Assembly (NCBI RefSeq): GCF_013315695.1 | Contig: NZ_CP054353.1 | DNA: 64,000 nt | Origin: Escherichia coli | GTDB taxonomy: Bacteria; Pseudomonadota; Gammaproteobacteria; Enterobacterales; Enterobacteriaceae | Strand: one strand, 5' to 3' | In this document: piece by piece, positions 18,667-21,258 of the stretch | How positions within the stretch are numbered: the first letter of the stretch is position 1 | How the letters are laid out: each line of letters begins with the position of its first letter | Translations under genes and position numbers: made by a program | Notes under the pieces: model-generated | What the model was told of the DNA's origin: nothing | Databases searched by the model: none | Seen by the model: the letters and a program-made list of their open reading frames with translations, nothing else

Positions 18667-21258
18667 TCAGAACGTCCAGACCACACCCGCCTGAGTATTC
18701 CACGGCGATTCTACCCCTGCGCCATTGCCATAACTGACTGACAAATGACCGCTTAACGTCGGGGTAAACGATGACCTTATCCCAGCCTGATAAACGCCAC
18801 GGGTTCCAGCCACATCATTATTAAATTTGCCATCGTCATTAACTTTCACCTGGTTAGAATCGGCGTATTCCTGACGTACGGCGGCTTTCAGCCAGGGTTC
18901 CAGCGTCGTACCGTTTTGCAGGTCCATGTGATAGCTTACCGCCGTTCCCGCTTCAGCCCGTAATATGCGGGTATTTCCCACATCCGCGCGCATGCCGTTT
19001 GATAACGTGTAGTCCTGACCATCTGTGGTAAAGCCGGTAAAGGCCAGATAAGGTCTAACACTCCACAATCCGTCAACCCAACGGAACCCGCTCTCGACAT
19101 GAGCACCCGCGCCGTTACTATTGTAATCGCCAAACGCTGTTGCCCCATTACTCATCTTGCCATGGATGGTGTTGGCAAAACGGTCAACTTTCACCACCCC
19201 ATCAACATAGGCACCGTTCTGATGCTCCCAACCGGCATAAGCCCCCAGGGTATAGCTATCGACATTGCCTTTGCCGCCGCGATCAAAACCAATATCAGAA
19301 TGAGAGTAACCAAAGAACAAGCCGCGAATTGTACTGCTTTCTTCACGGGAGAAACGGCTATCGATACCGAGCGTCAGCCCCGTCAATGTTTGCTCAAAGC
19401 CAGCTCCCGCATCAGTGGTCACGTTGTTGCGGGTGTTAATTGCCGAACTCCACATCGCCGTATCGTAATTAACGCCTTTTACGCTACCAAGACGTTCACG
19501 TACGGTGTCCAACTCTGCATCAAATACCAGCGGTTGTGCTGCCGCCATATTCAGCACATCAGTGGTTGAAGGGGTAATTTGCGCGCGATTTTCTGCCAGA
19601 CTCCAGCTATGGTTGCCATTATCCAGCAAGGTATATTCATACGTACCGATATCAACAACGCCTCCGGCATTGCCCAACGTGAATGCAGCATCACCGCCGC
19701 CCGTCGTTACCAGTGTAAGGCTATCTCCTGCAGCCGGGCTGGCACCGGTGTCCGTCACGAATATTTTGAAATCACCTGTTGCCTGACCGGTGACGTTGAG
19801 CTGATCGCTCTGATGATTAGCCATATCGGTACGCATATAAAAATTGCCGTTTCCCGACAGGGTATTGGTGGTCAACGTAATGAAATTTTCCGCACTTGCC
19901 GTCACTGATGAACGAGTCACTGGCTCAGCCATCATAATCACATTTGCGTCAGACATCGCAAGGTTGGCTAAGTTGAGGAGGGTGTTTTGGTTCGTCGTAG
20001 TGATATCGGCAATGATGGTCCATGAGCTACCATCGAGCGAAACATCCGCTTTGCTGGTATCCACGGCACCATGCGTTCTTAAAGAAGCGCCCTCAGAAAC
20101 CACGACACTACCCACCAACATAGCGGGTGCATAATTTATTTGCGGCTTCATGACCTCAAGAATGCCATCATTCCCTCTGACTGAAACGTTAACCATTGTG
20201 CCAGCCCAGACATTAGCGCGGCCATTGTTGATAACCATATTTTCAGAGATGGCTTTAGAGGAATACGTGATACTTCCATTCTGATCTGATCGACCGAGAT
20301 CATACACCGCATTTGCCTGCACTCTCGTACCAGTATCCTTTCCCAGCGATTGCATAGTGGCATGCTCATCAAGGATAGTGTCAATGGCCTGCGTGTCCTC
20401 CATAACAATGAGCCCGGAACCATCATCCAGTTCATAATTTTTTGACACACCATCCTTTATACTAAATTGGCCTTTACTGTTTGTACCACTCACTTCCAGC
20501 GCATTCGTTGAGACAATTAATTTTCCGCCTGCTTTTTTATCAACGCCAGTTGCAGTCCCGCCATCCATAACCTCCAGTAAGCCGCCATTATCCACAGTGG
20601 TATTATAAGCGAAGTCATTTTCTTCAACTCGCAAACTTCCGCCGTTTTCCAACAACATATTATTAGCAATACCATTCTTGATATCGAACTGACCGAGACG
20701 GTTTGTTCCGAATACCTCCATGGCCCGCGTGGTTGTTTTAATCGCACCGCCTGCTTTCTGATCTACCGCAAGCGCAAATCCCCCCTCTTTAACCTCCAGT
20801 AGTCCTCCCTTTTCGATAGCGGCAAAGACGGTCCCCCCATCTTTTTCAACGATTAAGCGCCCGCCTTTAATCGTAGGTTCATTCGCCGCGCCATAAACCT
20901 GTAGCACACCATTATTGAGGGTAGTCTGGTTTGCCGCGCCACCCATTTGAACAATTTGATAACCATCATTTAATACTGAGTATTCTGCGGTGCCATTCAT
21001 TTCAATGTACTGATACCCGCCGTTAATTTCAGTATTACTACTTATACCAAATTCTTTAATATGCTGTTCTCCGCCAGGATTGATTTTCGTATTATTGGCG
21101 GTCCCATAAACCAGCTGGATATCTTTTTCCAGGACAACACCATCAACTGTCTCACCATACTCAACTGTTGATGCCAATGCTATGGGTGAATATAACGCTG
21201 TAGCCACCAGAACAGATATTGCGGAACGACAAAGAGAAACAGAACCAGATTGATGCAT
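18667..21258 (-). CDS. yejO: AIDA-like autotransporter adhesin YejO, apparently intact
   Basis: 863-aa uninterrupted ORF: N-terminal signal peptide, Gly/Asn/Thr-rich passenger region, C-terminal beta-barrel ending in aromatic residue (VVWTF). Confidence 0.8.
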   Translation of the reverse strand: MHQSGSVSLCRSAISVLVATALYSPIALASTVEYGETVDGVVLEKDIQLVYGTANNTKINPGGEQHIKEFGISSNTEINGGYQYIEMNGTAEYSVLNDGYQIVQMGGAANQTTLNNGVLQVYGAANEPTIKGGRLIVEKDGGTVFAAIEKGGLLEVKEGGFALAVDQKAGGAIKTTTRAMEVFGTNRLGQFDIKNGIANNMLLENGGSLRVEENDFAYNTTVDNGGLLEVMDGGTATGVDKKAGGKLIVSTNALEVSGTNSKGQFSIKDGVSKNYELDDGSGLIVMEDTQAIDTILDEHATMQSLGKDTGTRVQANAVYDLGRSDQNGSITYSSKAISENMVINNGRANVWAGTMVNVSVRGNDGILEVMKPQINYAPAMLVGSVVVSEGASLRTHGAVDTSKADVSLDGSSWTIIADITTTNQNTLLNLANLAMSDANVIMMAEPVTRSSVTASAENFITLTTNTLSGNGNFYMRTDMANHQSDQLNVTGQATGDFKIFVTDTGASPAAGDSLTLVTTGGGDAAFTLGNAGGVVDIGTYEYTLLDNGNHSWSLAENRAQITPSTTDVLNMAAAQPLVFDAELDTVRERLGSVKGVNYDTAMWSSAINTRNNVTTDAGAGFEQTLTGLTLGIDSRFSREESSTIRGLFFGYSHSDIGFDRGGKGNVDSYTLGAYAGWEHQNGAYVDGVVKVDRFANTIHGKMSNGATAFGDYNSNGAGAHVESGFRWVDGLWSVRPYLAFTGFTTDGQDYTLSNGMRADVGNTRILRAEAGTAVSYHMDLQNGTTLEPWLKAAVRQEYADSNQVKVNDDGKFNNDVAGTRGVYQAGIRSSFTPTLSGHLSVSYGNGAGVESPWNTQAGVVWTF

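Follow-up and report, generated by a model that had tools for sequence, protein, structure and literature searches.

The closest described relative of the gene analyzed here is yejO of Escherichia coli K-12, which is split by IS5K (PMC11005336). In MG1655 (NC_000913.3) the gene (b2190) is flagged as a pseudogene and is made up of 67 bp, then IS5K (insH8), then a further 2525 bp. According to Wells et al. 2010, cited in PMC3426408, all commensal and diarrhoeagenic genomes have YejO and UPEC carry a truncated form, and yejO is also reported as missing from ST131 and present in ST38, ST405 and ST648 (PMC5654935). The promoter, PyejO, has been called putative and uncharacterised (PMC11677980). Our literature search for experimental work on YejO function found none, and returned only genome surveys, studies of IS5 and cases in which the K-12 deletion mutant served in place of the wild type.

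The window, a stretch of 64,000 nucleotides from E. coli contig NZ_CP054353.1, was proposed in a first-pass annotation to carry an intact yejO as a single 863-codon frame, and the six-frame ORF list bears this out (Table 1). The gene name also holds, as the order proL-yejO-narP is common to K-12 and the window and an identical protein is already named in RefSeq: WP_000554220.1, "autotransporter YejO", which is annotated in strain MSB1_4I, matches this 863-aa protein at 100%. The MSB1_4I chromosome (NZ_LR898874.1), from a human rectal swab, is 100% identical to the window, and RefSeq annotation places yejO between tRNA-Pro and narP. We are highly confident that the locus is an ordinary, uninterrupted chromosomal yejO allele encoding a classical (type Va) autotransporter with a passenger of the AIDA-I/Ag43 type, and that yejO belongs to the core-like genome of E. 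coli outside the phylogroup-B2-type lineages. The intact frame, the domain architecture, the collinearity with full-length orthologues, the IS5K disruption in K-12, the frequency in the population and the purifying selection are all established by the analyses that follow.

Table 1. Features of the yejO region in window coordinates, and matches of YejO to solved structures in residue numbers.
Feature	Position	Strand	Basis or detail
yejO coding sequence, 863 codons plus stop, uninterrupted	18667..21258	-	six-frame ORF list
yejO codons 1-29, predicted Sec signal peptide MHQSGSVSLCRSAISVLVATALYSPIALA	21172..21258	-	hydrophobicity profile, inspection
yejO codons 30-560, predicted passenger: beta-helix, AIDA-type repeats, 74-aa duplicated unit	19579..21171	-	Pfam, TIGR04415, PDB matches, AlphaFold2, Foldseek
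yejO codons 431-555, pertactin-like C-terminal passenger part (putative autochaperone-type region)	19594..19968	-	Pfam PF03212
yejO codons 602-863, predicted autotransporter beta-barrel translocator, ends W-T-F	18670..19455	-	Pfam PF03797, TIGR01414
Native yejO upstream sequence, 212 nt, 67% A+T, ATG to IS1	21259..21470	-	
proL, tRNA-Pro(GGG), conserved left neighbour of yejO	17050..17126	+	ARAGORN, annotation
IS4, 1426 bp, transposase on the yejO strand	17159..18584	-	11-bp target duplication ACCATTACGGT at 17148-17158 and 18585-18595
IS1, 768 bp, insA/insB toward narP	21471..22238	+	9-bp target duplication GGTTGTAGT at 21462-21470 and 22239-22247
PDB sequence match, Ag43 7koh	YejO passenger		E 7e-38
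PDB sequence match, Ag43 4kh3	YejO aa 48-295		E 2.7e-28
PDB sequence match, TibA 4q1q	YejO passenger		E 6.5e-27
PDB sequence match, pertactin 1dab	YejO aa 371-558		E 9.3e-18
PDB sequence match, BrkA translocator 3qq2	YejO aa 582-863		E 1.1e-18
PDB sequence match, Vag8 7akv	YejO aa 459-860		E 8.4e-34

The predicted protein has the three parts that the first-pass annotation had read from the sequence. By inspection, the N-terminus ahead of S30 opens with a short n-region that includes R11 and closes with an A-L-A motif at residues 27 to 29; the hydrophobic core between them spans residues 12 to 26, with 9-residue Kyte-Doolittle means above 1.5 for stretches starting at residues 9 to 16. AlphaFold models residues 10 to 22 as a helix at low confidence. 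This looks like the N-terminal Sec signal peptide of type Va autotransporters, with predicted cleavage before S30. The passenger (aa 31-560) is repetitive and rich in Gly (12.6%), Thr (9.6%) and Asn (8.7%), with a 74-aa internal duplication (about aa 151-224 against 225-298) and a periodicity of 18 to 19 residues. Pfam AIDA (PF16168) matches in two stretches (E 9e-51, 170.2 bits) and TIGR04415 in three (58.6 bits against a cut-off of 30), which points to AIDA-type imperfect repeats. The pertactin domain (PF03212, E 3.3e-45) covers residues 431 to 555, a region also matched by pertactin structure 2iou in the PDB sequence search. At the C-terminus, which reads ...AGVVWTF, the autotransporter beta-domain (PF03797) spans residues 602 to 841 with 155.6 bits (cut-off 26) and TIGR01414 spans residues 456 to 863 with 373.8 bits; together with the match to 3qq2 and the terminal W-T-F, this suggests a type Va barrel ending in an aromatic residue. 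All three Pfam domains score far over their cut-offs, and every part of the protein is covered by a sequence match to a solved structure.

We also modeled YejO with AlphaFold2 from a shallow alignment of 12 near-identical orthologues. The passenger is all-beta, with pLDDT above 90 from residue 30 to about 445. With this shallow alignment, pLDDT falls below 50 for residues 505 to 863, barrel included, and for the barrel it is the HMM and sequence matches that suggest integrity. The top Foldseek matches of the model were the Ag43 structures 7koh, 7ko9 and 4kh3 (E 1e-19 to 1e-22, 25-26% identity), followed by the beta-helices of TibA and pertactin. The modeled fold is thus that expected of a type Va beta-helical passenger, and the architecture is borne out as being of the AIDA/Ag43 type by the Pfam, TIGR, PDB and Foldseek matches.

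The first-pass annotation gave the K-12 gene as a pseudogene, which is correct: it is split by IS5K after nucleotide 67 and is otherwise collinear with the window ORF. Without IS5K, K-12 yejO is 2592 bp, or 863 codons, and the reconstituted protein is identical to that of the window at 839/863 residues (97.2%) with no gaps, 65 nucleotides and 24 residues being different. This collinear, high identity to b2190 and the conserved position between proL and narP place the window gene in the YejO orthologous group. More divergent orthologues of 862 to 865 aa (76-93% identity) align with the window protein end to end, and no part of the passenger or barrel is missing relative to them. Missing from shorter forms in the database are, variously, one 74-aa repeat unit (residues 168-241), residues 241-280 (40 aa), residues 633-666 of the barrel (34 aa) and the C-terminal 75 aa. 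We considered whether the window ORF could itself be a shortened allele and rejected this, as the 771-, 790-, 823- and 829-aa forms each lack segments present here. For the window allele against that of K-12, dN/dS comes to 0.21 over the whole gene (passenger 0.31, barrel 0.07), as would be seen in a protein maintained by selection.

The first-pass annotation implied that an intact yejO sets this strain apart, and this part of the proposal does not stand. A yejO match is present in 5421 of 5426 complete E. coli genomes, and in 4281 of the 5426 at least 80% of the gene lies in one place; the intact state is that of the majority, and it has already been published. The 863-aa YejO cluster (90% identity), named "autotransporter YejO [Escherichia coli]", holds 16,859 member sequences, and its representative is 98% identical to the window protein over 100% of the query. 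Locus structure was sampled at 40 evenly spaced ranks of the genome match list. In this sample, 28 loci were a collinear single piece of 2589 to 2592 bp and a 2591-bp locus occurred once; two loci carried the K-12-type IS5, one carried IS2, two had an in-frame 222-bp deletion and nine were short remnants. From this sample the collinear share is estimated at about 70%. All sampled carriers of the IS5K junction are K-12 laboratory derivatives. IS2 interrupts yejO in strain 90-3040, and what is left of the gene in an ST131-type strain is 924 bp long and carries the annotation "internal stop; missing C-terminus". An intact yejO, annotated and described before, is normal for the species; the exceptions are the laboratory derivatives of K-12, which carry IS5, and strains of the B2/ST131 type, which keep short remnants. 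The pseudogene annotation of K-12, which here reflects the IS5K insertion, is no guide to natural isolates, in which the gene is as a rule intact, and an intact natural allele like that of the window would be the right one to clone for functional study.

Two insertion sequences flank the gene. Directly downstream of the yejO stop codon lies IS4, an element absent from the first-pass annotation. It splits a hairpin, AAAAAACCAACC-CTTAC-GGTTGGTTTTTT, that is common to proL and yejO and in K-12 sits between proL and the yejO stop codon. The same IS4 junction occurs in 8 of the 5426 genomes, some with diverged yejO alleles. Upstream, the IS1 that had been reported in the first-pass annotation is indeed present, 212 bp from the yejO ATG; on the other side, 116 bp separate its right end, counted with the duplication, from the narP ATG (22355). 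Excising IS1 together with one duplication copy leaves a yejO-narP spacer of 319 bp, in which 2 positions are not as in K-12. Among the 5426 genomes the exact IS1 junction is found only in MSB1_4I, and we rejected the possibility of an old, common insertion on that ground; an apparent match in XL1-Blue was likewise set aside, as it joins two unrelated pieces. In the near-identical isolate AF3 (NZ_OZ547117.1), both the YejO protein and the IS4 are shared with the window, but the spacer is empty. Because the AF3 spacer is empty, the junction is unique and the spacer is uninterrupted in 5353 of the 5426 genomes, we conclude that the IS1 insertion is very recent. In a separate lineage that includes TUM12357 and others, IS1 has inserted independently at 165 bp upstream of the ATG of yejO, in the orientation seen here and with the duplication CAAAATTC. 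The flanking IS1 and IS4 are thus recent or rare insertions that leave the coding sequence untouched.

Given an intact gene, the alternatives that have to be weighed concern whether YejO is made and whether it works. One reading is that yejO is intact and cryptic, with no transcription under ordinary conditions due to the AT-rich upstream sequence and possible silencing by nucleoid proteins, in which case no YejO would be made and IS1 would be irrelevant. We give this somewhat less than an even chance. No promoter in the yejO sense turned up ahead of the ATG in a strict scan of positions 18500 to 22400 for sigma-70 promoters and terminators, and a lenient scan returned only weak sigma-70-like sites (8-9/12 matches, 16- or 19-nt spacers), which together with the 67% A+T of the retained 212 nt is consistent with silence. 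Other autotransporter adhesins of K-12 are reportedly cryptic in the laboratory, which also counts in its favor. In K-12, yejO ranks among the ten genes least often detected across 3,325 RNA-seq samples (PMC10392735); however, these figures come from the IS5-disrupted allele and have little bearing on an intact gene. The dN/dS values, lowest in the barrel, speak against a cryptic gene by showing past selection on the protein, and selection in turn argues that YejO is made under some conditions. A protein inactivated by missense changes despite its open frame, with the gene on its way to becoming a pseudogene like that of B2 strains, would fit the repeated decay of yejO (IS5 in K-12, IS2 in 90-3040, the ST131-type remnant and alleles with a truncated barrel). 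We consider this very improbable, as the exact protein is a RefSeq WP entry common to other isolates, 177 genomes have at least 99% DNA identity to the window yejO, the three Pfam domains score as described above, there is no indel relative to orthologues and dN/dS is well below 1.

The insertions themselves could matter, as either the IS4-split hairpin downstream or the IS1 212 bp upstream could change yejO expression. IS1 might affect yejO or narP, as it sits in their 319-bp divergent spacer, close to both start codons. Expression of yejO might go up, through separation from silencing sequences or an outward hybrid promoter, or down, through loss of activator sites, or the divergent narP might be altered. 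Hybrid promoters can arise at IS1 ends, the insertion is unique to the strain and absent from its close relative AF3, and the same-orientation IS1 in another lineage arose independently. However, the weak promoter-like sites of the uninterrupted K-12 spacer all lie inside the retained 212 nt, on the proper side of the element, and the lenient scan found no new -35/-10 pair across the IS1 boundary. The rarity of the insertion, with nearly every other spacer uninterrupted, is also what a recent, neutral insertion in a strain rich in IS elements would give, and we regard a strain-specific change in expression caused by IS1 as unlikely. More doubtful still is the broader proposal that IS1, possibly along with the IS4-split proL/yejO hairpin, rewires expression so that a cryptic YejO adhesin is turned on in a gut isolate or NarP-dependent nitrate/nitrite regulation is altered. 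If this were true, the independent IS1 insertions at the spacer in other lineages could mean that it is a recurrent adaptive target.

Returning to the reading of an ordinary intact allele, YejO would most likely follow the route of its family. The signal peptide would take the protein through Sec, after which BAM would insert the C-terminal barrel (aa ~602-863, with its terminal W-T-F) in the outer membrane. The passenger (aa 30-~560) would be threaded out and would fold into a right-handed beta-helix from the pertactin-like region (aa 431-555), which by analogy with the family may serve as an autochaperone. The helix would then stay exposed on the cell, where it would probably act in adhesion or self-association. 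We infer secretion, surface display, adhesion and expression here from the family to which YejO belongs.

Set against known autotransporters, YejO has the same three-part architecture as Ag43 (Flu), and its passenger is alike both by sequence (7koh) and by predicted fold (Foldseek E ~1e-22, 26% identity). Ag43 is about 1040 aa long, and YejO is shorter. Phase variation, cleavage and self-association are traits known from Ag43. YejO shares the AIDA Pfam repeats and the heptosyltransferase-target strand-loop-strand repeat (TIGR04415) with AIDA-I and TibA, the glycosylated autotransporter adhesins of diarrhoeagenic E. coli, and TibA 4q1q matches by both sequence and Foldseek; the repeat region of YejO is much shorter than theirs. 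A linked heptosyltransferase gene (aah/tibC), a defining trait of only the AIDA-I/TibA subset, is not at the yejO locus, where the neighbours are IS4/proL and IS1/narP (proL and narP in K-12). YejO scores 133.9 bits against a cut-off of 1200 for the Ag43 equivalog model NF033177 and 71.6 against 1200 for the AIDA-I model NF033176, and since both NCBIfam scores are far under their cut-offs, we judge it to be a related but separate orthologous group, and not an orthologue of AIDA-I or Ag43. With pertactin, BrkA and Vag8 of Bordetella it shares a homologous pertactin-like junction (aa 431-555) and a predicted 12-strand-type barrel (3qq2 and Vag8 matches), whereas the N-terminal passenger and the biological roles differ. 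The nearest counterpart is K-12 YejO, collinear, 97.2% identical and in the same synteny: K-12 has IS5K within the gene, whereas the window strain is free of IS5K and carries IS1 upstream and IS4 downstream, both outside the coding sequence.

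The IS4 copy next to yejO interrupts a hairpin common to proL and yejO, its insertion point falling precisely within the hairpin's loop and stem. The same junction was found in 8 of the 5426 complete E. coli genomes searched, and some of these eight carry clearly diverged yejO alleles. An identical junction alongside such alleles points to a hot spot for IS4 insertion more than to inheritance from a shared ancestor. The flanks of many other IS4 copies are similar to the hairpin target over 20-37 nt. The IS4 transposase gene and yejO share the same orientation, so read-through from yejO into the transposase is conceivable.

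Coordinates of the insertion sequences and of yejE
Feature	Location	Strand	Details
IS4 + target duplication	window 17148-18595		IS4 1426 bp; 11-bp duplication ACCATTACGGT
IS1 + duplication, yejO-narP spacer	window 21462-22247		212 bp upstream of yejO
IS1, yejO-narP spacer, TUM12357-type strains	L005 (NZ_CP134370.1) 1533-2300		165 bp upstream of yejO
yejE, microcin C/peptide ABC transporter permease	window 6111-7135	+	1025 bp vs 1026 bp

On the other side of yejO, the yejO-narP spacer has received independent IS1 insertions in different lineages, in the same orientation. The IS1 in the window is also close to narP, 116 bp upstream of it, and its insA/insB genes point in that direction, an arrangement that might affect narP expression. 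The strain appears to be rich in insertion sequences, as judged by end queries against the whole NZ_LR898874.1 record: the IS1 end matched at least 40 places and the IS4 end 18, likewise 18 in the near-identical isolate AF3 (NZ_OZ547117.1).

The start-codon annotation of yejO is inconsistent between records. In TUM12357 (NZ_CP134370.1), RefSeq annotates a protein of 846 aa that starts 51 bp downstream of the ATG of yejO in the window, even though the two genes do not differ over their first 55 nt.

The window's yejE, flagged as frameshifted by RefSeq, is broken into two ORFs of 147 aa and 260 aa. The 1-bp shortfall means that the gene was inactivated very recently or that the sequence contains an error; in the closest relatives, AF3 among them, the gene is intact at 1026 bp.
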